Program-made: the position numbers and the translations under genes | From: Minisyncoccia bacterium | GTDB taxonomy: Bacteria > Patescibacteriota > Minisyncoccia > Phycocordibacterales > UBA9973 | DNA: 64,000 nucleotides | Assembly (NCBI GenBank): GCA_965656375.1 | Contig: CBFHKH010000001.1 | Location: forward strand, 514,845-578,844 | Reading direction: 5' to 3' | The notes under the pieces: model-generated | Seen by the model: only the letters and a program-made list of their open reading frames with translations | Databases searched by the model: none | Told to the model about the DNA's origin: nothing | Shown: positions 23,817 through 46,027 of the stretch, in pieces | Position numbering within the stretch: position 1 is the stretch's first letter | How the letters are laid out: each line of letters opens with the position of its first letter

Positions 23817-23904
23817 TGCGGAGGCGGTGAGATTCGAACTCACGGTCCTTTAAAGGGACGACGGTTTAGTAAACCGTTGATTTAAACCACTCATCCACGC
23901 CTCC
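23817..23904 (-). tRNA. class II (Ser-type, long variable arm) tRNA with apparent anticodon ACU
   Basis: GGAGGCG-TG-GAT-(11-nt D-loop)-ATC-A-ACGGT-TTACTAA-ACCGT-(variable arm)-GTGAG-TTCGAAT-CTCAC-CGCCTCC-G; the cloverleaf folds cleanly and positions 34-36 read ACT. Confidence 0.7.
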
Positions 23905-24268: not shown

Positions 24269-24357
24269 GGAGACGTGTCGGAGTGGTCTAACGTACCTCC
24301 TTGCTAAGGAGGCAGGCTTTAATCGGCCTCGAGAGTTCGAATCTCTCCGTCTCCGCA
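24269..24357 (+). tRNA. tRNA-Ser (anticodon GCU)
   Basis: GGAGACG...CCTCC-TTGCTAA-GGAGG..., long variable arm, T-loop TTCGAAT. Confidence 0.85.
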
Positions 24358-33105: not shown

Positions 33106-33843
33106 ATGGACGACATAGAAAAACTAAAGAAAGAAAACGAGGAACTCAAGAAGATGAATGCGGTAAAGTCTGATCTGATCTCCATCTCGGCACACCAGCT
33201 CCGAACGTCACTCTCTGCGCTCAAATGGATACTCAAGATGTTCATTGATAAAGACTTAGGTACTCTTACGAGCGAACAAGAAAGTTTTATACAAAAAGCA
33301 TTCAACAGCAACGAGCGCATGATCGCACTTGTAAATGATCTCCTTACTCTTAATCACGCCGATGATACGACTATCGCCTACAAGCTTAAAAATGTTGATA
33401 TGCTCGGCCTCGTCGAGCAGACAGTCTTTGAATTCTCCGGTGAGACAAGTAAGAAAGGAATCACTTTGATATTCCTTCGTCCTGAATCTCCGATTCCAAT
33501 GATCAAATGTGATGAAGAAATGATCCGTGTGGTTCTCCAGAACCTGATCGAGAATGCGATAAAATACAGCAATGATAAAGACAAGGTGATCATCTCAATA
33601 AAGGAATCAAATGGCGAGCTCCTGTTATCTGTTCACGACACTGGTATCGGCATTGAAGAGAAAGATAAGGATGAGATATTCAAGAAATTCTTCCGTGCAG
33701 GAAATGCAATCGAGAAAGACAGCATTGGGTCTGGGCTCGGGCTATTCACTACCAAAAATATTGTCGAACGACATAATGGCAAGATTTGGTTTGAAGCAAT
33801 CGGTGGCGGAACAACATTTTTCGTTACATTGCCTATCGCGTAA
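33106..33843 (+). CDS. cytoplasmic histidine kinase (HisKA plus HATPase_c, no sensor or TM)
   Basis: H-box ISAHQLRTSL with N, D(xGxG) and G boxes (HDTGIGI, GSGLGL). Confidence 0.85.
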   Translation: MDDIEKLKKENEELKKMNAVKSDLISISAHQLRTSLSALKWILKMFIDKDLGTLTSEQESFIQKAFNSNERMIALVNDLLTLNHADDTTIAYKLKNVDMLGLVEQTVFEFSGETSKKGITLIFLRPESPIPMIKCDEEMIRVVLQNLIENAIKYSNDKDKVIISIKESNGELLLSVHDTGIGIEEKDKDEIFKKFFRAGNAIEKDSIGSGLGLFTTKNIVERHNGKIWFEAIGGGTTFFVTLPIA

Positions 33844-33864
33844 ACCCTATGATATAATCAGCCC

Positions 33865-34230
33865 ATGAGAAAAGTACTTATAATAGAAGATGACAGTTTC
33901 CTGCAAGGCCTTGAAGCGAGCAAGCTTAAAAAAGAGAACTACGAAGTCATCGTAGCTTCGACGGGTGAAGAAGGAATAGCAAAGATAACCGAAGCGGGGA
34001 TTGATTTGATCCTCCTTGATATCATACTTCCAAAATTCGATGGCTTCGAAATTCTTAAAAAGATTCGTGAAACAGAAGCAACTAAAAATATCCCTGTTAT
34101 CGTATTCTCAAACCTCTCTGAAGAGAAAGACATTAAAAAGGCAGAAGCTCTGGGAGCGACTGACTTTATGGTTAAATCAAACTTTACTCTCGATGAATTA
34201 GTAGAGCACATCAATAAGATTCTAAAATAA
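33865..34230 (+). CDS. single-domain response regulator
   Basis: KVLIIEDDSF...DLILLDIILPKFDGFEI... receiver domain. Confidence 0.85.
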   Translation: MRKVLIIEDDSFLQGLEASKLKKENYEVIVASTGEEGIAKITEAGIDLILLDIILPKFDGFEILKKIRETEATKNIPVIVFSNLSEEKDIKKAEALGATDFMVKSNFTLDELVEHINKILK

Positions 34231-36746: not shown

Positions 36747-37427
36747 ATGTCACAGTTCAGCTACAAACAAAGCCCAAGCGGCTCTCTTCTGGTAAGAGTT
36801 AAAGCGTTTACAACATTCACTGTTGAAGTAACTTATAAAGGTTACTGGTTACCTACCCCGGAGGAACTTGAAGGGAAACTACGTCCTGAAAAGGATTTCT
36901 CTTCTTCCAAAGGTAAAACAATTGAACGTGTAAACATACACATGTACAACAGGGTACGAGCATTGGTAAGGTATCTTACCGAAGACCTAAGTTTAACGAT
37001 CAATTCTGCAAGTATCAATGCGGAAAAGATCAAAACGAACGCCGGCAATGCTCTGTACAGAGCCTGGTTTGGAAGTGATAAAGAAGAAGCATGTTACTTC
37101 TATTTATCACAATTTCCTAAACGAAAAGTATACAGGTATCGTACATCTACCAATGAAATTAATTTCAGTTCCCTGATGACCCGCGCACAGTGGGTAGAAT
37201 TAAGGGAAATGATTTTAAAAGCTAAGGAAGAGTATAAAGTGATCCCGGTAACAGACAAAGACGAAAAAACTGCCGTTATGAATGCATTCTTCTACTCCCT
37301 TGCTTTGAAGAAAGTCAAAGAAGCGAGCGTGTTGGATTACAAAAAGAATTCAGCAAGAAAAAACGAAGATGTCGCTAAACCAACAGTTAAAAAATCTGCT
37401 CCAAAAAAGGCAGTAGCAAAAAAGTAA
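36747..37427 (+). CDS. hypothetical protein with histone-H1-like Lys/Ala-rich C-terminal tail
   Basis: 226 aa ending ...KPTVKKSAPKKAVAKK. Confidence 0.5.
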   Translation: MSQFSYKQSPSGSLLVRVKAFTTFTVEVTYKGYWLPTPEELEGKLRPEKDFSSSKGKTIERVNIHMYNRVRALVRYLTEDLSLTINSASINAEKIKTNAGNALYRAWFGSDKEEACYFYLSQFPKRKVYRYRTSTNEINFSSLMTRAQWVELREMILKAKEEYKVIPVTDKDEKTAVMNAFFYSLALKKVKEASVLDYKKNSARKNEDVAKPTVKKSAPKKAVAKK

Positions 37428-37502: not shown

Positions 37503-40500
37503 TTACTTATTATCTTTTTCTTTTATACCACGTATTTGTTTTGCAAACTCTGCTTCCATAACTACAATTGAGTCCAACAAGAATGCTTTTATGTCTTTAT
37601 CTTTATTCTCAGGAATTTCTGTATATTCACGATATTTTTCATCTATATACGCCTTTTCAGGATCTCCTGTCTTAAGCGTAAAGTAACCCTTAAAATTAAA
37701 GTATCTTTCTACTCCCTTTCGATACGATTTCATTAATCGTGGGTCACTCATTACTCGATCGACAAGTTCTTTTGTAAGAGCAGTGTTTTCTCTGAGTTCT
37801 TCAAGTGTGACTTTTGTTTGCTTTTTCTTTACCTCATCGTGTGCATGCAATAAGGCAGACATGAATTCCTTCATTGACTGATATCTATCCTTTGGTTCAG
37901 GACTCATGCCTTTTTTGATTACTTCCTTGATTGGAGATGGGACTGTACCCGGGAACCTCATTTTTCCTGATAAATGAATTTTTTTGTATTCTTCCATTCG
38001 TTCAGATGCTTTCATATCCTTAGTTTCCTTTTCAATATCGTGAGGCCACTTATTTGTGATAAACCTATACAAGTTAGCTGAAGCTGCATAGACATCAACT
38101 GTTTTATCGAAACTTTTCTTTGCCTCAAATAATTCTGGGGCCATAGTAAATCTATTTCCACGAGCATAATCTCGCATTGATGTTTTTTGTGAACCTTGAA
38201 CAATAGCTGCACCATCAAGATCTGTTATTTTCAAATTATTTCTACTTAAGATTATATTACTTGGAGAAATATCTACATTAATTACACCCGCATCGTTGAG
38301 TGAATCAACTGCTTGAGATGTTTTCATAGTTGTCGCGATTGAATCATCAAGAGACAATCTTCTATTATTTAAATATGTTTGAAGATCCATATCTCCTGCT
38401 TCATATACTCTGTATGTTTTACCGTTTACTTCAAAAGTATCCATTGGTAATAATACATTTCGATTCTTATATCCCTTCTTTTTCAAGAAAGATTCAGGCG
38501 TATTATCTCCCCAGTAATGAGATTCCTTTAGTCCATTGAAATAATCTGTGTCTATCTCTTTTATAACTAAAAGTTTGTCTTGTCCTGGCTTATAACCCAA
38601 AGAAACCTTTCCTGTTTCAGTATTAGATAGTACAAAGTCTTTTGAGATTATATATGCACCTACACTTTCTTTATTTTCTGAATTTATAACTTCATTTACG
38701 TTTTTAACCCTTGGCTTTGTATCATAACCTACTATTACTTCATCAGAAAAATTATTTAACTGTTGCGGCAAATTGGAAGCAGGTTGTTGCCGTATCTTTC
38801 TAAGTTCTTCGATTGCTTCAGGTTTTCCTGAGCGTGCATCACGCATTAATTTCCCTTCAACTTGATATCGCTTGAGTCCATCTAGAAGAGGTCTCATCTT
38901 CGTTATGACCATATCGCCTTTACTATCGAGTTTATATTTAATTCCAAGCCAGCCTATTGCTTTGCGATAATAAGGACTATCCTTTCCAATTTTTTCACCT
39001 GCTTCCCAACTATCTAGAGTTCGATTTATGATGTATTCGAATGTTTTTTTCAATTTTTCCTGAGTTTCCAGATCATCATAGTCTATGGCATCACCGTCTT
39101 CCATTGTTAGCTTTCGAATTTCATCGTCAAACGCACTGAATCCTTTGTCCCACTGCTCAACAGGGGCAAGGCCTGATTTAAACGCATCAATAGCTCGACG
39201 AGACGAGGTAAAGAGTCGTGTAGTAGTTCCAGCAAAACCAAGTGCTTTTTTATTATCACCTCTTGCACTTATTATTGCTTGTCCAATAGAGATATCCTCT
39301 CCACCCTGGAGGTTGTCTATATAGCCACCAATACCCGCAAACATACTTGATCTGTAGGCAGAGTTAGCTCCACTTGAAACCATACTGTTCGTTCTATGAC
39401 GACCGATAACACTGAGATACTGGAAGAGTCTCGTTCCTATATGGACGCCTGGGTACTTCTGGTATGACTCTGGATCCCAATCAAGCTGACCAAGGAGTGC
39501 ATCAACTTCTGGATTCTCTTCAAACTTATCGATAAATGTTTGGATATATCTTGGATCAATACCTTTATTGTCAGCGTCATTACTTACCATTATCAAGTCT
39601 GGTGCGTCTTTACCTCTTTCGTGCTGGCGTACGAGTGTTGCATCTGAAAGTATCTTTCTGATTCTTCCGATTTTTGCTTCATCATTTGGCAATGCTTCAT
39701 ACATGACTCTGACATTCATGTCAGGATAGTCAGTTTTAAACTTTTCGATCGCAGCCATCGTCTCATCTGCATTCAACGGATTGCCATCCTTATCATTCTC
39801 GGGATGATTCACATAGAGAACAATTTCAAAATCTTCTGGCTTAGCAGTTTGGTAGGTATAATTCTTTAACGATTCGTAGATATTATTTCCCTCTTGGTGA
39901 CCTGCGACAGGGATACAGATAGAAATCTTGCAGTCCTTGCCCATCTTTTCTGTTGATTGCGCGAGTTTCTCTATTCTCTCTCTGTATTCTTTATCTTGCT
40001 TTTCTAGATAAAGAGCAATTTCTTCAAAGTGATCCAATTTTGCGTTTGGATTTTCTTTCAAAGTCTTTGATCTCAACTTTTCGAATAATGCTAATTTCTC
40101 TGCAGGAGTAGCACCACCAGCGTAATTTAAATAGTATTCTATTTTGTTATTAACCGGAACGATCTCTGCAGCCTTAGGCTTTTTGTATCCGAGCGGTTCA
40201 AGTGGAGTACGAGGAACAAGGGGTATAAAGTATGGCGGTTCAGTATCAATTGGGATCTCGAGAGTGTTTATCGGGATCTCTTTTGGACCAGGGACAGTAA
40301 TCGGACCGTGGTCAGGACCTTCGTACGTAGCAAGTTCTCTGACATGCAGACGTCCATCTGCATCTGTACCGAATGTCTCAGAGACTTCGGCAAAGCGTCC
40401 TTGGAATACGGCATGACCTTTATCATCTACACTAAAGAATAATTTTCCTACCTCACTATTTGGATCGATAATAGCGTTACCGTTCGCATCTATATCAACT

Positions 40501-42716
40501 TCGAATGGATGCATCTGAGTATCTCTCGTTAGTGAGAGGAACATCTTGAGTCCACCATTTTTGACTTTTTCTTGAGCATCCACTGAAAGACTATCATGGA
40601 ATGAACCACCTTTTGTCATATGAGAAACATTGAACACAATCTTGCCATCAGCATTGACCCCTGTATTATTCTCTCCGCCCCACCAGAGTTTCAATTCATT
40701 CTTATCAAAAACTGGCTTTGGGGTATCGTTGTCATACCATCCGTCACGAGCTATGTGTGTAGTCTGGTCTGGATGAGAATCTATATATTCATTCGGATTC
40801 ATTGTCGTATCTCCTGCTCCTTCAATCAAAGATGTTTCATTATTAGCAATAATTCCATCTTCCCCAAGTCTATTGATGGACGCTTGATCCAAAGCACCGT
40901 TTGCATCTGTATGGAGTTCTATATGATCAGAGATGACATCATCACCACGCATAATGTTGAAAGTACCATCCCCATTATCTATCATCGTTGTTCCCTCTGG
41001 AAGCTTGAAGTGGCTTGGTATATCAAAACTCTTACTAGTAAGAATTTGGTCCTGCGCATTCTCCATAGAGATATGCTGGTTACCTGAAAGGAGATGATCT
41101 AATGGAGTCTGTACATGATTTGATGTACCTTCCCCTGTTATGCGATGATATATTCCTTCGAAAACTCCTTCTTTATGTCCACCCCACAGTCCATCAGCAA
41201 GAGCAATACTTTCTTGCACTGCAGCTCCTATAGTTACACCCATGAGTACAGTTTTACCCATCTTGAGCGCAGCACGGCGCAATTTTAAATTGCTGAACGC
41301 TTTATCTTGTTTTGTGATGCCCTTTTCACCGCCAAGGAATGCTTTTTCTGTAGTATCAACTTGTTTTGCTAAATAAGACTCAAAGGTTTCTCCATCTGGT
41401 AAACCATCTTTCAATGTAGCATTTACTTGTTTCGCTAACTCAACTTTTGCACGAGCAAGCAAGATAACCATTTCAGTGTGTTCTTTTTCAACATTTGCAG
41501 GGTTTGAATATCGAATGAGATCGATTTTCTTTTGGCTTGCAAGTGACTCACGAGCTTCGATATTGCCAATGTGACCTAAAACTGACTCTAATTCACTTTG
41601 AGAGATTTGCTTTGCTACATCATTACCATCTTCATCTTTTGTAAAAAGTGATTCTCGGAGTGCCTTCATTAATACTTCTGCACTTTCTGTCTGATATGCA
41701 TATTTCTCCATCGATTCACGACGTGGGCTGTCTGCTTCTATCACACCGCCTTTTGCCATTTCACGGCCGTGCTGTCTTCGCTCTTCAGCAAGGCGCTGCG
41801 ATTCATTTGCAGCGGCAAGTACACCAGATGCAACTGCCGTACCTCCAAATGTCACCATGTGTGAGACTTTGCTTTTCATGAACATCTTTCCTGTCCCTGC
41901 TGCTACAGTATAGGCAAGAGCAACCGCTGTCGATAATGTCGCAGGATTGATGAATCTTCCAATCTTAGTTTTTTTGATTCCGGTGACAGTCTTGTCGATC
42001 CAGTTACTTTTCGCTTCTGTCTTAATACTACTTTTTGCCTTGCCGACAATTACATTGAAATCAAGATCAAGCTCTTCGAGCTTTGCCCCGTGTTCTACAG
42101 CAAGTTTGGCATTTTTAGCCATTTCAAAAAGATTACTTGCGTATATATTTGAACCCGTAACAAAAGAGTCTCCTATTGTATTAAAAATTTTAACCTTTTC
42201 TGAATTGAATGAATCTTCATTGATATCACCTTTTGCGTAATCAGAAATAAGTTTCTTTATATCTGCTTTTGTCTGGGCTGTCTTTGGATCAGTTTCTTCG
42301 AGTGTTTTTTTCTCTTCTCCAACTTTCTTGTTAACTGCTTCTTCATATTCTGACGCAAAGCGCTCTGTGATAGCTTCCATCGCTCTATCATGGGATTGTT
42401 TATCTTTCTCTACTGCAGAGTAAATATTATCTGACTTGAAGATTTCATCTCGAGCTTTGTCTAATGCTTTCTGTCTATAATACCCATCCATGTAGGTATG
42501 CTTCCAAAGTTTTTTCCAGAAACCAGCTTTGCCTTTTGCTTCAGTCATTGCTGCATCAGCAGCATCGCGAGCTTCCATTTCGGCCAAATGAGTCGCATCA
42601 ACAATTACGAGCTTTTGTTTTAAAGCTTCTAATGCTTTATTTTTTATTTCCTCACTTGTTTGCGGATTTTCAATTGTATCCGGCTTACTATATAGAGTAG
42701 GTGATTCAATTGGCAT
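37503..42716 (-). CDS. giant membrane protein (1737 aa): N-terminal coiled-coil/TM region, GT-A glycosyltransferase-like domain, C-terminal eukaryotic-like protein kinase domain
   Basis: GT2-like start ISICIPVAG...NIYESL and DxD motif SNDADNKG. Kinase subdomains are present: LLVIKEI (VAIK-like), VINVDISPSNIIL (HRDxKPxN-like), KITDLDG (DFG-like), TMAPELF (APE), DVYAASANLY. Confidence 0.8.
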   Translation of the reverse strand: MPIESPTLYSKPDTIENPQTSEEIKNKALEALKQKLVIVDATHLAEMEARDAADAAMTEAKGKAGFWKKLWKHTYMDGYYRQKALDKARDEIFKSDNIYSAVEKDKQSHDRAMEAITERFASEYEEAVNKKVGEEKKTLEETDPKTAQTKADIKKLISDYAKGDINEDSFNSEKVKIFNTIGDSFVTGSNIYASNLFEMAKNAKLAVEHGAKLEELDLDFNVIVGKAKSSIKTEAKSNWIDKTVTGIKKTKIGRFINPATLSTAVALAYTVAAGTGKMFMKSKVSHMVTFGGTAVASGVLAAANESQRLAEERRQHGREMAKGGVIEADSPRRESMEKYAYQTESAEVLMKALRESLFTKDEDGNDVAKQISQSELESVLGHIGNIEARESLASQKKIDLIRYSNPANVEKEHTEMVILLARAKVELAKQVNATLKDGLPDGETFESYLAKQVDTTEKAFLGGEKGITKQDKAFSNLKLRRAALKMGKTVLMGVTIGAAVQESIALADGLWGGHKEGVFEGIYHRITGEGTSNHVQTPLDHLLSGNQHISMENAQDQILTSKSFDIPSHFKLPEGTTMIDNGDGTFNIMRGDDVISDHIELHTDANGALDQASINRLGEDGIIANNETSLIEGAGDTTMNPNEYIDSHPDQTTHIARDGWYDNDTPKPVFDKNELKLWWGGENNTGVNADGKIVFNVSHMTKGGSFHDSLSVDAQEKVKNGGLKMFLSLTRDTQMHPFEVDIDANGNAIIDPNSEVGKLFFSVDDKGHAVFQGRFAEVSETFGTDADGRLHVRELATYEGPDHGPITVPGPKEIPINTLEIPIDTEPPYFIPLVPRTPLEPLGYKKPKAAEIVPVNNKIEYYLNYAGGATPAEKLALFEKLRSKTLKENPNAKLDHFEEIALYLEKQDKEYRERIEKLAQSTEKMGKDCKISICIPVAGHQEGNNIYESLKNYTYQTAKPEDFEIVLYVNHPENDKDGNPLNADETMAAIEKFKTDYPDMNVRVMYEALPNDEAKIGRIRKILSDATLVRQHERGKDAPDLIMVSNDADNKGIDPRYIQTFIDKFEENPEVDALLGQLDWDPESYQKYPGVHIGTRLFQYLSVIGRHRTNSMVSSGANSAYRSSMFAGIGGYIDNLQGGEDISIGQAIISARGDNKKALGFAGTTTRLFTSSRRAIDAFKSGLAPVEQWDKGFSAFDDEIRKLTMEDGDAIDYDDLETQEKLKKTFEYIINRTLDSWEAGEKIGKDSPYYRKAIGWLGIKYKLDSKGDMVITKMRPLLDGLKRYQVEGKLMRDARSGKPEAIEELRKIRQQPASNLPQQLNNFSDEVIVGYDTKPRVKNVNEVINSENKESVGAYIISKDFVLSNTETGKVSLGYKPGQDKLLVIKEIDTDYFNGLKESHYWGDNTPESFLKKKGYKNRNVLLPMDTFEVNGKTYRVYEAGDMDLQTYLNNRRLSLDDSIATTMKTSQAVDSLNDAGVINVDISPSNIILSRNNLKITDLDGAAIVQGSQKTSMRDYARGNRFTMAPELFEAKKSFDKTVDVYAASANLYRFITNKWPHDIEKETKDMKASERMEEYKKIHLSGKMRFPGTVPSPIKEVIKKGMSPEPKDRYQSMKEFMSALLHAHDEVKKKQTKVTLEELRENTALTKELVDRVMSDPRLMKSYRKGVERYFNFKGYFTLKTGDPEKAYIDEKYREYTEIPENKDKDIKAFLLDSIVVMEAEFAKQIRGIKEKDNK

Positions 42717-42723
42717 ATATGTA

Positions 42724-43029
42724 TTAACCTAAATATGTTTGTCTAAAAAGTATAAGTTCACTTGCAATTAGTTCGGCAAGATCTGGAATATGTGCTGCAC
42801 AAAATGCCTGTACCTCTTCATCTGTTCCCTTCTCTGATATTTCAACAAAAGCATCCATTTGATCCTCTGGGATATTTTTGACAATTACTGCGTTTATTCT
42901 ATCTTCGATACGACTCTGAAGATCAAGTTTGATCTGAAGTATAACTTCTGGCGCAAGACCCTCAAACTCTCTTTTTTCACTGACGATCTTGTCGATGAAC
43001 GTACTAAGATCTAAGTTTTTGTCATTCAT
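42724..43029 (-). CDS. small acidic hypothetical protein upstream of the giant gene
   Basis: 101-aa ORF in the same orientation with an 8-bp gap to the giant gene. Confidence 0.4.
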   Translation of the reverse strand: MNDKNLDLSTFIDKIVSEKREFEGLAPEVILQIKLDLQSRIEDRINAVIVKNIPEDQMDAFVEISEKGTDEEVQAFCAAHIPDLAELIASELILFRQTYLG

Positions 43030-43149
43030 TTTTTGTATTTTTAGTTAGTAAAAGTAACATCTTTATTATATCTTCTCGGTATTATAAGGTCAATAAAACA
43101 AGCTTCTTAAACCAAAATTAACTATTTATAATTATACAACCATCGAAGT

Positions 43150-43179
43150 ATAATTGTCAAGTAATATATTGACAATTAT
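43150..43179. promoter_or_regulatory. 30-bp palindromic operator-like site in a divergent intergenic region
   Basis: ATAATTGTCAA-gtaatata-TTGACAATTAT, perfect 11-bp arms; the right arm contains TTGACA. Confidence 0.5.
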
Positions 43180-43352: not shown

Positions 43353-44471
43353 ATGAAAAAAACAAAGAAAGCCGCAACGGCTTCACAACAGACACCCCCT
43401 TTAAACAGGGCGCAAACTCTGGAAGTATTTAATTCCAGGAAGAAAGCCATTAACGACAGGATGGCAATACATGTTGAAGACATCACCAAGCTTAAAAAAC
43501 CTTTACCGGAAATGAGCTTGGAGTTGTACGGACACAAAGAATACGACCTTAAAAAGGGGTACAAATTTCTTTTAACGATTATTGTTTTACTGGTAGTTTC
43601 AGCCTTAGAAATTCCTTTGAATGCAACCGGACTTGAAATGCTGGGCCGCCCTCAAATGACGACCACATTCATGGCAATAGGCCTTGCATGTGCGCTAGGC
43701 TTACTTGCTGAAGGCGCTGGTTTTTCATTCAGAAGAGGAGTTGTTAAAAAAAGCTTTATTGGAATTTTTGGTGCACTATTTTGTGCCGGCGTAGCCTTAA
43801 CCATCATCTATTGGTTATCAGAATTTCGAGTGGCATATTTCCATCGTATGAAGTTTAACAAAGAGGACATCAGCATAACCGGGCAGGTGATATTTTCAAT
43901 TGCCGTTTGGTGTGCAGGTGTAATTGGAGTTTACTTTTTAACCAGTGGTGTAAAAAACTTACATCTGGAAAAAGTATTTAACAGCAAGCGTAAATCCATC
44001 AGAATTTTACAGAAAAAACATGCAGCTTTGGAAGCCGAAAAAGATAAACTTAAAGCTGAAAATGCTGTAAATATGGTTGCTGCAGAAGCATACGAAACAA
44101 ACATTAAGCATGAAAAAACAAAAGCTGAAAATTTGAAAAATGAGCTAGCAATAGCAACATTAAAAGACAAGGAAAATGCAGCAATGCAGCAGACAGCGCA
44201 GGAGAAAAACAAAATCACTCAGCAGAAAAATGCCTTTTATGAAAAACACACAGAATTATTAGGTATTAAGACCCGCGTTATGGAAATTGCGGGTAAGATT
44301 GAAGACAAAAGTGAGTTAAACCTCAATGAAGACTATGTATCATCAATGGACCAGGCTACTACCTTGATCGAAGAGATGAAGGAACTGGCATCCGTGGATA
44401 TACCTGGTACAAAAGAAAGCTTCGAACAAGCTGAACAAATTTTTAACTCATTAAAAAACCTCGCATCATGA
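43353..44471 (+). CDS. membrane protein (N-terminal cytoplasmic region, 4 TM, long C-terminal coiled coil)
   Basis: 372 aa with hydrophobic helices at about 70-210 and a Lys/Glu/Ala-rich heptad region at 215-372; higher GC and different codon usage than neighbours; no Shine-Dalgarno sequence. Confidence 0.5.
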   Translation: MKKTKKAATASQQTPPLNRAQTLEVFNSRKKAINDRMAIHVEDITKLKKPLPEMSLELYGHKEYDLKKGYKFLLTIIVLLVVSALEIPLNATGLEMLGRPQMTTTFMAIGLACALGLLAEGAGFSFRRGVVKKSFIGIFGALFCAGVALTIIYWLSEFRVAYFHRMKFNKEDISITGQVIFSIAVWCAGVIGVYFLTSGVKNLHLEKVFNSKRKSIRILQKKHAALEAEKDKLKAENAVNMVAAEAYETNIKHEKTKAENLKNELAIATLKDKENAAMQQTAQEKNKITQQKNAFYEKHTELLGIKTRVMEIAGKIEDKSELNLNEDYVSSMDQATTLIEEMKELASVDIPGTKESFEQAEQIFNSLKNLAS

Positions 44472-45163
44472 AAAGTGTAATTATCATGGCACTGGTGGCT
44501 GCAACAGCTACCCTGCTATCCTGCGGATCAGAAACACCAAAAACAAAAAATGATATCTACATTCTTGTAGATAATACCGACAAGACAAAATACTCCGGTG
44601 ATATTGTTTCATCAGATGCTATATTGGACCTTGTTGGCAAGAAGGGTACTGTGAAATTCAAAGCCCTTACTGGTGTTTCCCTGAATGAAGAATCGGAAAT
44701 TTCCTTACTGGTAGATGGATCCACTAGCGTTCTGCGCCAGGATCAGATCGACCCGTTCGTTGAAAAGTTGGACTCCCTTAAGAAAAAATACCTCGGTGTT
44801 ACAACTGAGTATAAAAAATCAAGCTTATGGGAACCGGTATGCCAAGCTCTGAATGAGCTTAGTGCATCCGCAGTTACTGAGCCCGGCGAAAAAACGATGA
44901 TCATATTATCGGATATGCTGGAAAACTCAGACTACTGCAACTTTTATAAGGATATGTCGATAGAAACAGTGAAGGAACAGTTGGCAAAATCAGGCTCAGC
45001 ACTTCCCAAAAATCCAAAGGTTAAGGTAATCATCATCTTTAATCCCAACCAGAACATTGAAAAAGAACGGCTGCACAAGAAAGCCATGAATTACTGGGAA
45101 AAGCTTTTTAAAGAAGCAGGGATCAAATTTGTTGTAAAAGCCAATCTTGGCGAAAAAGTGTAG
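44468..45163 (+). CDS. lipoprotein
   Basis: Signal peptide plus lipobox ATLLSCGS; its ATG overlaps the upstream stop (ATGA). Confidence 0.5.
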   Translation: MKSVIIMALVAATATLLSCGSETPKTKNDIYILVDNTDKTKYSGDIVSSDAILDLVGKKGTVKFKALTGVSLNEESEISLLVDGSTSVLRQDQIDPFVEKLDSLKKKYLGVTTEYKKSSLWEPVCQALNELSASAVTEPGEKTMIILSDMLENSDYCNFYKDMSIETVKEQLAKSGSALPKNPKVKVIIIFNPNQNIEKERLHKKAMNYWEKLFKEAGIKFVVKANLGEKV

Positions 45164-45165
45164 TC

Positions 45166-45660
45166 ATGGGAAACAAGGAAGCAAAAGAGCAGTTAAAAGG
45201 TTTTCTTTTAAAACTCAAGGTATTTAAAATGTACCTCGAACAAACCAAGAGTAAATTCACTGAAATAGCGTATTATGAAAAATTTATTTTTGGCTTTCAT
45301 CCTCCGAGCCCCATTCCTATTAATATATCAGAAGAGTTTTGGAATAGTTTGAGTTCTACTCAGAAGTTGTTACTTGAATTCAGGAAATCATTCAATGAAA
45401 ATGATCTTCCCGAAGACATACGGCAAGCTTTTGTGAATATGACGATTACTATAGTTCAAAATAAATTTGATGTTGATAAAGGAGTGATCAAGATTGGTGG
45501 ATTGGGGAAACCATGGTGGAAAGAAGTTGGGTATGTGAAAAAGAATTGGGGACCGATGGAATATGATGTAAAAGTTATATATTCACAAGAAGCATATTCG
45601 AATATTAGCTACTACTTTGTATTGATCGGCCAGATAGAGCAACTGGAAGCCATGTGTTAA
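45166..45660 (+). CDS. hypothetical cytoplasmic protein
   Basis: 164 aa, starting 2 nt after the lipoprotein stop; no recognisable motifs. Confidence 0.4.
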   Translation: MGNKEAKEQLKGFLLKLKVFKMYLEQTKSKFTEIAYYEKFIFGFHPPSPIPINISEEFWNSLSSTQKLLLEFRKSFNENDLPEDIRQAFVNMTITIVQNKFDVDKGVIKIGGLGKPWWKEVGYVKKNWGPMEYDVKVIYSQEAYSNISYYFVLIGQIEQLEAMC

Positions 45661-45915: not shown

Positions 45916-45962
45916 TTAAAAAAACGTAATGGGTAATTACGTTTTTTTAAATGTCCACCCGC
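45913..45962. terminator. long perfect hairpin (22-bp stem) acting as a bidirectional terminator next to the tRNA 3' end
   Basis: TGGACATTTAAAAAAACGTAAT-gggta-ATTACGTTTTTTTAAATGTCCA. Confidence 0.6.
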
Positions 45963-46027
45963 TTGGATTCGAACCAAGGACCCCAGAGGTATAAGCTCTG
46001 TGCTCTAACCAACTGAGCTACGGGTGG
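45952..46027 (-). tRNA. tRNA-Ile with apparent anticodon UAU
   Basis: CCACCCG-TA-GCTC-AGTTGGTTA-GAGC-A-CAGAG-CTTATAC-CTCTG-GGGTC-CTTGG-TTCGAAT-CCAAG-CGGGTGG-A; positions 34-36 read TAT. Confidence 0.7.

Follow-up and report, generated by a model that had tools for sequence, protein, structure and literature searches.

The locus examined here raises the question of what is done by a single bacterial protein of 1737 residues that carries both a glycosyltransferase-like domain and a eukaryotic-like protein kinase domain (ePK), and, before that, whether such a protein is the product of one gene at all. The protein is encoded in a Minisyncoccia bacterium, on the stretch of 64,000 nucleotides of contig CBFHKH010000001.1 that was analysed as a whole and is called the window in what follows. 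Patescibacteria represent a large share of bacterial diversity, and the way in which they build their envelope and engage their hosts is hardly known.

The giant gene and its partner

The features that define the locus are the following:

37503..42716, reverse strand: giant open reading frame, 1737 aa plus stop, ATG start (from the reading frame and the full-length homologue P0002)
42724..43029, reverse strand: partner gene DUF5663, 101 aa, acidic, pI 4.3 (Pfam PF18908)
43065..43160, reverse strand: two predicted promoters of the sigma-70-like type in front of the partner gene (consensus match only)

The giant frame runs for 5214 nt without interruption and the G+C content is even along the gene. 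The homologue P0002 is 65% identical to the giant protein along the entire length, and the same order of N-terminal module, GT-A domain and kinase is found in six more proteins. The sequence-only reading had named a misassembled concatenation of separate genes as an outcome that would undo it; this is excluded because P0002 matches the whole length and the six other proteins keep the domain order. An artefact of assembly or annotation could be argued from the loci L007 and L009/L010, where the kinase is a gene of its own, and from L020, where the N-terminal module and the GT-A domain lie on separate reading frames. Nonetheless, with the frame unbroken, the base composition even and the fused order recurring in seven other independent proteins from different samples, the probability of such an artefact is practically nil. 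The giant reading frame is a genuine single gene. The combination of domains had been called unusual, which holds among known proteins; within the family of this one the architecture is recurrent (8 of 195 members).

The small acidic reading frame immediately upstream had been proposed as a cognate partner, and the comparison of loci bears this out: DUF5663 adjoins the giant gene in each of the 45 loci examined in which the flank is present, while the other neighbours vary. In the window its product matches PF18908, a Pfam family without described function, with 29.4 bits against a cut-off of 23.7. Its stop codon lies 7 nt before the ATG of the giant gene, and the two genes are probably co-transcribed. 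Of the two predicted promoters, one (TTGACA-18-TATAAT, 43160-43131) agrees with the consensus at 12 of 12 positions and the other (43093-43065) at 11 of 12. Across the family the partner is a protein of about 100 aa and acidic, with a pI of 4.1-4.6 in 37 of 40 homologues (full range 4.08-7.95). A profile search of the PDB with DUF5663 returned nothing better than E 0.15; no mention of it was found in the literature searched, and searches by topic likewise returned nothing relevant.

The glycosyltransferase and kinase heads

The C-terminal half of the protein carries three parts, namely a GT-A head, a kinase and a tail domain of 110 aa:

38784..40139, reverse strand: GT-A/GT2-like region, aa 860-1311, core about aa 930-1180 (from homologues and a structure model)
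37872..38618, reverse strand: Hanks-type/ePK Ser/Thr kinase domain, aa 1367-1615 by Pfam PF00069 (about aa 1340-1625 in the family alignment)
37506..37841, reverse strand: conserved C-terminal tail domain of about 110 aa, aa 1626-1737

The presence of a GT-A-like domain and a Hanks-type kinase domain in one polypeptide, as first proposed, is upheld by Pfam, by the homologues and by the structure model. For the glycosyltransferase, direct searches with the window protein were empty or nearly so: no glycosyltransferase family matched at E <= 1 in Pfam and none in NCBIfam, a single-sequence search of the PDB gave no match, and a profile search of the PDB gave 6yv7 alone, at E 0.15. Fold-level and transitive routes were therefore needed. 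In the transitive test, which used 19 homologous segments that are 24-33% identical to the window region, PF00535 was matched by six (best 6.9e-6), PF13641 by three (best 3.9e-6) and PF13632 by four. The AlphaFold model of the region (pLDDT 86, pTM 0.87) was matched in Foldseek to GT2 enzymes with E values of 3e-9 to 1e-6 and a probability of 1.00; the matches listed are all glycosyltransferases, nearly all of them named GT2 enzymes (best E 3.1e-9), and include PcManGT, HAS, BcsA, TarP/TarS and RmlT. By predicted fold and by homology, then, residues 860-1311 or thereabouts are confirmed as a GT-A/GT2-fold domain. The GT2-like domain claimed upstream of the kinase thus stands on its homologues and its fold, and not on a direct profile match of the window protein.

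The motifs of this head are CKISICIPVAGHQEG at aa 929-943, HQEG (E942), VNHP (N970), DAD (1047-1049), GGED (1138-1141) and SSRRA (R1173, R1174). Conserved across the GT-A homologues are the D1047-A-D1049 sequence, which is a DxD-type motif with its second Asp invariant, the G-E1140-D1141 sequence, which is a GED motif that occupies the catalytic-base position, and the pair of arginines. The head therefore has in common with PcManGT (6yv7), TarP/TarS/RmlT and the catalytic domains of hyaluronan and cellulose synthases the GT-A fold, the DxD-type DAD, the GED and a basic motif after it. It differs from these enzymes in lying below Pfam detection, in following an 850-aa module of no known fold, in having no transmembrane channel or trimerisation domain after it, and in its invariant N970, which aligns with the Asp of VDSAS in 6yv7, that is, with the usual first nucleotide-binding Asp.

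The kinase domain is matched directly by PF00069 (Pkinase), with 73.8 bits against a cut-off of 31.7 (E 1.9e-20) and over profile positions 11-254 of 263. Its best solved relatives, with which the protein-kinase fold is shared at the level of sequence, are PknE (E 9e-9) and PknB of Mycobacterium and StkP of Streptococcus. The motifs that had been quoted for it are all present: LLVIKEI (1382-1388), VINVDISPSNIIL (1478-1490), KITDLDGA (1496-1503), TMAPELF (1524-1530) and DVYAASANLYRF (1541-1552). In an alignment of 11 fused and stand-alone kinases, with a divergence down to about 30% identity, the invariant residues are the beta-3 Lys (K1386, in LLVIKE), the alpha-C Glu (E1408, in TPESFL), the catalytic Asp D1482 and Asn N1487, which align with their counterparts in PknE/PknB, the Mg-binding Asp of the DFG position (D1499, in D1499-L-D1501-G), the Glu of APE (1526-1528, with PE at 1527-1528 conserved), the alpha-F Asp D1541 and R1611 of subdomain XI. 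All of these are shared with PknB, PknE and StkP.

Other canonical elements are replaced or missing in comparison with the same three enzymes. HRD is N1480-V-D1482 in the window kinase and H-G-D, H-A-D or C-T-D in its relatives, which makes the window kinase one of the non-RD type; Ser or Ala takes the place of the catalytic-loop Lys in all 11 sequences; and DFG has become D-L-D. The alignment therefore agrees with the first description, in which the catalytic Asp and Asn were said to be kept and the His and Arg of HRD and the catalytic-loop Lys to be replaced. The glycine-rich loop GxGxxG is missing as well, YIISKDFVLSNTETGKVSLGY having one Gly and the stand-alone relatives none. Unlike the receptor kinases PknB, PknE and StkP, the window kinase has no PASTA or other sensor domain and stands at the C-terminal end of a giant protein that bears a glycosyltransferase. 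Judged by its residues, it is probably a catalytically competent, divergent, non-RD kinase of the Hanks type. We infer the activity of both heads from conservation only, because in each of them canonical elements are missing or replaced.

The N-terminal module and the family

The heads follow a module that defines the family:

40167..42716, reverse strand: N-terminal module, aa 1-850, helical over aa 20-530 and followed by a beta-rich domain
41898..41954, reverse strand: hydrophobic segment 1, aa 255-273
41808..41864, reverse strand: hydrophobic segment 2, aa 285-303
41196..41273, reverse strand: hydrophobic segment 3, aa 482-507, with invariant G493, G497 and E502
40257..41054, reverse strand: beta-rich domain, aa 555-820
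40194..40241, reverse strand: conserved, Pro-rich motif EPPYFIPLVPRTPLEP, aa 826-841, marking the boundary where the module ends

This module of about 850 aa has no known fold and is common to the family; no similarity in sequence or fold to toxin delivery domains was found. Its beta-rich domain contains the conserved motif WYDNDTPK..NELKLWWGG (aa 660-681). The three hydrophobic segments are conserved, with a family mean Kyte-Doolittle value of 1.35-1.39 against at most 0.42 elsewhere in the module, but they are only marginally hydrophobic: the summed dG is about +5 kcal/mol for each on the Hessa scale. Of the earlier description of a membrane protein with TM-anchored sequence, the three conserved segments are found, and such anchoring of the giant protein in a membrane is plausible at most. 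The flanks of segment 3 are strongly basic on the N-terminal side (K/R 6.5 against D/E 0.4) and acidic on the C-terminal side (1.1 against 2.6), which by the positive-inside rule favours a signal-anchor with the N-terminus inside and the C-terminus outside. Together with a hairpin formed by segments 1 and 2, such an orientation would leave aa 509-1737 outside the cell and so would contradict a cytoplasmic location. This three-TM topology would place both nucleotide-dependent enzymes outside.

The giant proteins form a large, uncharacterised family that is specific to Patescibacteria, with 1299 clusters at 50% identity. What the C-terminus carries varies: the heads are GT-A (in about 54% of members), GT9, a calpain-like Cys protease (P0148), a PPP-like phosphatase (P0158) or non-enzymatic repeats. 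With the models for GT-A, kinase and tail, no head is recognised in 73 of 195 members (about 37%), of which at least some have repeats only. The GT-A head is conserved, with 30-78% identity over about half of the family. The tail domain of the window protein occurs elsewhere in the family after a GT-A head, after a GT9 head or after the bare N-terminal module. The tail of other members, which contains an IIDHH motif, was considered as a DHH phosphoesterase and was not called as such, no PDB sequence match being obtained. This wider context, in which the window protein is a single version of a modular family of very large size whose C-terminal heads can be exchanged, had escaped the sequence-only reading.

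The kinase has a narrower distribution: it occurs in company with GT-A giants alone, in some cases as a fusion and in others as a gene that directly follows the giant gene. It is fused to the N-terminal module and GT-A in 8 of 195 family proteins, and in none is it present without GT-A. In two other loci (L007 and L009/L010) a stand-alone kinase, 45-48% identical to that of the window, lies immediately downstream of the giant gene, in the order DUF5663, GT-A giant, 70-nt gap, kinase. This recurrent fusion or adjacency suggests, as evidence of the Rosetta-stone type, that phosphorylation and glycosylation are coupled.

The giant gene occupies stable chromosomal positions among housekeeping genes. 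FtsH and RecG flank it in 10 loci each, which is synteny within one subclade, and no neighbour other than DUF5663 is conserved across loci. The gene is core and vertically inherited, and not mobile.

Possible roles at the membrane or at the host interface

The explanation that we tentatively prefer, although we place it just short of an even chance, is that the giant protein is a glycosylation machine that works in the cytoplasm close to the membrane and carries a regulatory kinase. The hydrophobic helices and their basic flanks would keep the protein on the cytoplasmic side of the cell membrane, and DUF5663 would bind the N-terminal module to stabilise it or to assist its assembly. With a nucleotide sugar as donor, the GT-A head would glycosylate an acceptor near the membrane, for instance a polymer of the envelope, a lipid carrier or a protein. 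The kinase would be competent without phosphorylation of its activation loop and would control glycosylation locally by phosphorylating the machine, the partner of the machine or the substrate. The cytoplasmic side is proposed because the heads identified (GT-A, GT9, kinase and PPP-like phosphatase) need nucleotide-activated donors or phospho-substrates, which by established biochemistry are normally cytoplasmic, and because the hydrophobic segments are marginal. Against it stands the arrangement of variable heads on a constant carrier, which resembles effector and toxin architectures.

The role of the kinase could be different. It may be a pseudokinase or scaffold without phosphotransfer, the fusion merely adding a binding module, in agreement with the absence of GxGxxG and with the replacement of HRD by NVD and of the catalytic-loop Lys by Ser. 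Pseudokinases, however, usually lose at least one of the residues (beta-3 Lys, alpha-C Glu, catalytic Asp and Asn, Mg-binding Asp) that are here invariant over 11 divergent sequences, and we regard this as improbable. By analogy, the kinase might also act on the sugar or polymer product of the adjacent GT-A head and not on a protein. Protein-kinase-fold sugar kinases that work alongside glycosyltransferases are represented by WaaP, in the LPS core together with GT9 heptosyltransferases, and by POMK, on O-mannosyl glycans. The likeness lies in a kinase of this superfamily being tied to a glycosyltransferase, strictly so here, whether fused or adjacent; in the occurrence of GT9, the heptosyltransferase family, as an alternative head in the giant family; in the missing Gly-rich loop; and in the catalytic-loop pattern D-x-[S/A]-[P/L]-x-N, together with the HGD/NVD variants, which are reminiscent of atypical kinases. 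In the WaaP and POMK pathways, nonetheless, the enzymes are separate proteins, and the window kinase scores best with Pkinase/Hanks-type models and not with the Kdo/WaaP or APH families. It also keeps APE, the alpha-F Asp and the subdomain XI Arg, which make up the substrate-binding C-lobe of protein kinases and are not found in small-molecule kinases. A sugar kinase is therefore unlikely, if somewhat less so than a pseudokinase.

The location of the heads could also be different altogether. The main rival explanation, which takes up the host-interaction factor suggested in the sequence-only reading, is that the giant protein may be a host-directed surface or effector protein, in which the hydrophobic helical hairpin, the signal-anchor-like third helix and the beta domain of the N-terminal module anchor the C-terminal part or translocate it out of the episymbiont, so that the GT-A, kinase, protease or phosphatase heads have their targets on the host cell or within it. 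In that case DUF5663 would be a chaperone or export adaptor, comparable to the acidic helical proteins of small size that accompany secreted toxins. Several modular toxins are built in a comparable way: the large clostridial glucosylating toxins combine a GT-A domain, a Cys protease and a hydrophobic translocation region, and MARTX toxins and LXG toxins, the latter with small helical partner proteins, join a constant delivery part to variable enzyme heads. The giant proteins share with them a constant carrier with exchangeable heads (GT-A, GT9, kinase, the protease of P0148 and the phosphatase of P0158), Ala/Gly-rich helices of the marginal hydrophobicity that conditionally inserting toxin domains have, and a small acidic helical partner that is always adjacent. 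The charge bias of segment 3, which predicts the C-terminus outside, and the largely episymbiotic lifestyle of Patescibacteria point in the same direction. Several observations do not fit. Searches with Pfam, NCBIfam and PADLOC brought up neither a secretion-system marker nor a signal peptide nor a toxin-trafficking domain, and no immunity-like gene is conserved downstream, DUF5663 being the only conserved neighbour. The heads lie C-terminal to the hydrophobic region, in contrast to those of the modular toxins. The GT-A head is conserved across about half of the family and is not diversifying, while more than a third of the members have no recognised head, some of them just repeats. The gene has been inherited vertically, with housekeeping genes around it, and we know of no route by which a tethered domain of 1200 aa would reach the host cytoplasm. 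On balance, an effector or surface role is doubtful. Slightly more doubtful still is the specific proposal that DUF5663 and the N-terminal module form a new Patescibacteria-specific delivery or display system, which would export exchangeable enzyme heads into the host cell or to its interface with the symbiont and would here glycosylate and phosphorylate host targets. If true, it would be the first candidate effector platform of episymbionts of the candidate phyla radiation (CPR), and extracellular or host-directed heads would make the whole family a new platform of this kind.

A family of at least about 1300 sequence clusters, always paired with DUF5663 and without described function or literature, can be approached experimentally through two soluble enzyme domains and a partner of 100 aa, all of which are testable.

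A role in defence was considered and rejected, no neighbour having matched PADLOC and the kinase part having matched only the generic models PD-T4-6, mad6, Stk2 and PglW. In the sequence-only reading the organism was taken to have few other signalling proteins; a histidine kinase/response regulator pair is encoded 3 kb from the giant gene.

The giant gene, its partner and their family

The window is a segment of bacterial chromosome, with tmRNA, tRNAs, FtsH, RecG, PurL and a histidine kinase/response regulator pair, and its G+C content is even at about 0.36-0.46. Two adjacent genes are at issue:

37503-42716 (-): giant ORF, ATG start, frame uninterrupted, 1737 aa
42724-43029 (-): partner ORF, 101 aa, ending 7 nt before the start codon of the giant gene

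All motifs quoted in the sequence-only reading were found where it had placed them. The possibility raised there, that the giant ORF is a misassembled concatenation of separate genes, is ruled out by P0002, a protein from a Candidatus Paceibacterota MAG (GCA_031413715.1) that is encoded in a syntenic locus and is 65% identical across residues 23-1737. The same fused order of N module, GT-A and kinase occurs in six more proteins of the representative library, and in locus L033, where the N module is just 32% identical. The chimera reading was rejected on these grounds, and an artefact is practically inconceivable.

The N module (aa ~20-850) is common to all 68 first-round homologues and matched no Pfam family. 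Searched against 1.84 billion proteins, the N-module profile retrieved 1299 clusters (50% identity representatives) with E <= 1e-3, of which 863 reach E <= 1e-30. The genome matches are mostly titled Patescibacteria (Paceibacterota/Paceibacteria, Moraniibacteriota, Nomurabacteria, 'Saccharibacteria'), with a few automated TPA labels of Gammaproteobacteria or Bdellovibrionales. The predicted model (pLDDT 82.6) is helical up to about aa 530 and beta-rich at 555-820. In L020 (7941-11863) the N module and GT-A occupy two overlapping ORFs, and in L019 (331-3614) the N module is split into two; real gene fission is one possible cause of these breaks, frameshifts or sequencing errors another.

The small acidic ORF upstream, suggested earlier as a cognate partner, proved to be a DUF5663 protein (29.4 bits versus a cut-off of 23.7), and this gene abuts the giant gene in every locus with the flank present among 47 fetched loci and the window, mostly upstream and occasionally immediately downstream. 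When the neighbouring ORFs are clustered, conservation is confined to the giant gene (42 distinct loci) and DUF5663 (40); FtsH and RecG come next, at 10 loci apiece, as a result of vertical synteny. The partners are about 100 aa long, and for 37 of the 40 homologues the pI is 4.1-4.6 (full range 4.08-7.95). They have in common a conserved core, RxEDRINA, and F(R/K)QxYL at the end. Searches returned no solved relatives of the partners and no literature on DUF5663, nor any paper describing the family or a GT/kinase fusion; the N module and DUF5663 are without characterised relatives. Given two strong matches to a sigma-70-like promoter ahead of the partner gene in the window, the two genes probably form one operon.

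What lies C-terminal to the conserved Pro-rich motif EPPYFIPLVPRTPLEP (aa 826-841) differs from lineage to lineage.

Exchangeable C-terminal domains (heads) behind the shared N module
GT-A: 106 of the 195 family proteins examined
GT9: alternative head among family members
Repeats of ~80 aa plus a 70-aa end domain: short-tail family members
Calpain-like Cys protease after GT-A: P0148, C-terminal 520 aa (PF00648, 8.7e-7)
PPP-like metallophosphatase: P0158, C-terminal 715 aa (PDB 1v73/2z72, 2.3e-4; GDxxGDR...GNHE motifs)
Tail of ~400 aa with conserved IIDHH(S/G)EKSDR motif: C-termini of P0127, P0185, P0093 and P0169; no sequence match in Pfam or PDB
End domain of ~110 aa: aa 1626-1737 in the window protein, recurrent behind several heads

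The giant gene represents one form of an unstudied and very large two-gene system of Patescibacteria whose enzymatic heads are exchangeable. At the domain level these are known kinds in a new variant; the system as such is uncharacterised. The observation stands, and the fusion is more interesting within its family than as an isolated case. Short-tail members (e.g., P0031, P0025, P0054, P0068) carry one or two copies of the repeat EEYxGMxDDLxMINKKxQSSEGII...FKSxYGKKRYNEL and an end domain of about 70 aa terminating in GNIKITKVE, both absent from Pfam.

Glycosyltransferase and kinase domains

The GT2-like domain of the sequence-only reading stands by fold and through its homologues, but not by direct profile detection: the window protein has no GT match in Pfam at E <= 1 or, by sequence, in the PDB. 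Among the 19 homologous segments aligned (A1), PF00535 matches 6 (best 6.9e-6), PF13641 matches 3 (3.9e-6) and PF13632 matches 4. The only match of interest of the A1 profile in the PDB is the GT2 mannosyltransferase 6yv7 (E 0.15), over the first beta-strand, the conserved Glu and the second strand. The AlphaFold model from A1 is confident (pLDDT 86, pTM 0.87), and every listed Foldseek match in the PDB is a glycosyltransferase, almost always a named GT2 enzyme (PcManGT, 3.1e-9; hyaluronan synthases, BcsA, TarP/TarS, RmlT, K4CP; probability 1.00 for all). Fold and transitive homology therefore support the assignment to GT-A. E942, E964, N970, A-D of D1047-A-D1049 and R1173-R1174 are invariant across the family, and G-E-D 1139-1141 is largely conserved. 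The region thus has most GT2 motifs but lacks one Asp, N970 occupying the position of the usual first nucleotide-binding Asp; with this one unusual substitution, the motif set is compatible with activity.

The proposed kinase domain was borne out by the Pfam Pkinase profile (aa 1367-1615; 73.8 bits, cut-off 31.7; E 1.9e-20; profile positions 11-254 of 263). Its profile score places it in the protein-kinase superfamily, but it departs from three classical sub-motifs. NCBIfam gave only generic, sub-threshold similarity to PknB-like, MAD6, LanL and PglW kinases; the closest solved relatives are mycobacterial PknE (E 9e-9), PknB and pneumococcal StkP. Against these, VINVDISPSNIIL lies opposite HRDVKPxNIL, TDLDGA opposite VDFGIA, MAPE opposite the APE motif and PKDRY opposite the subdomain XI Arg.

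Eleven kinases of the clade were aligned (8 fused, 3 stand-alone); the fused kinase of L033, aligned on its own as a twelfth, follows the pattern of the others. The GxGxxG loop was found in none of them, the HRD position varies (NVD, NID, CTD, HTD, HAD, HGD), and the catalytic-loop Lys is Ser or Ala in every member. A pseudokinase is nevertheless very improbable: K1386, E1408, D1482, N1487, D1499-L-D1501, PE 1527-1528 and D1541 are invariant, as are NRF before APE, a WPY motif and the R-Y of subdomain XI. We read the domain as a putative non-RD, atypical phosphotransferase, catalytically competent and under purifying selection. A kinase directed at a sugar or polymer, in keeping with the adjoining GT-A, is improbable; C-lobe elements that characterise protein kinases, not small-molecule kinases, are retained in the clade.

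Among the 195 family proteins, the kinase always lies behind a GT-A head and never otherwise. A search with the kinase domain only found three stand-alone kinases (280-337 aa, 45-48% identity), two of them placeable in loci. The gene order in L007 and L009/L010 is DUF5663, giant gene (N module and GT-A; 1562-1640 aa, 43-44% identical to the window protein), a 70-nt gap and the kinase. The fact that the kinase is fused in some genomes and adjacent in others is Rosetta-stone evidence for a shared function. The stand-alone kinase P0072 is seemingly frameshifted (L009 5183-6185, L010 5112-6114), the kinase HMM matching two overlapping ORFs.

Proposed membrane association and function

The N module has three conserved segments (aa 255-273, 285-303 and 482-507) that far exceed the rest of it in hydrophobicity. 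They are rich in Ala/Gly/Ser/Thr, and sums of about +5 kcal/mol each on the Hessa scale make them marginal as autonomous TM helices. Mean K/R versus D/E charges in the family are 4.7/2.0 before the first segment, 2.75/0.03 between the first and second, 6.5/0.4 before the third and 1.1/2.6 after it. If the protein crossed the membrane three times from an internal N-terminus, aa 509-1737 would lie outside the cell. Given that this part includes two enzymes needing nucleotide sugar and ATP, monotopic or hairpin association with the inner membrane face is favoured, with all heads cytoplasmic.

Domain identities, family membership, the obligate partner, the kinase-GT linkage and the conservation of catalytic residues are shown by the analysis. 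The explanation tentatively preferred, and somewhat short of probable, is that the giant protein would sit at the cytoplasmic face of the membrane with DUF5663 bound to its N module, the GT-A head glycosylating an envelope-associated acceptor and the kinase providing local control by phosphorylation. A host-directed effector or display platform is unlikely, yet keeps substantial weight, mainly on account of the membrane topology; the overall architecture is like that of modular toxins in logic only, not in sequence or fold.

Four ORFs flank the module (372, 231, 164 and 226 aa; 43353-45660 (+) and 36747-37427 (+)); they have zero Pfam or PADLOC matches and are not kept beside the giant gene in distant loci. 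Adjoining recG at 33106-34230 (+) is a pair found together with the module in 5-6 loci: a small histidine kinase of cytoplasmic type (245 aa, with HisKA and HATPase_c) and a 121-aa receiver protein that stands alone. Two tRNA-Ser genes about 360 nt apart (23818-23904 (-) and 24269-24356 (+)) both score above the Rfam tRNA threshold, with ARAGORN anticodons ACT (A34, unusual for bacteria) in one and GCT in the other. A tRNA-Ile with anticodon TAT (45953-46027 (-)) lies between the giant-gene neighbourhood and ftsH.
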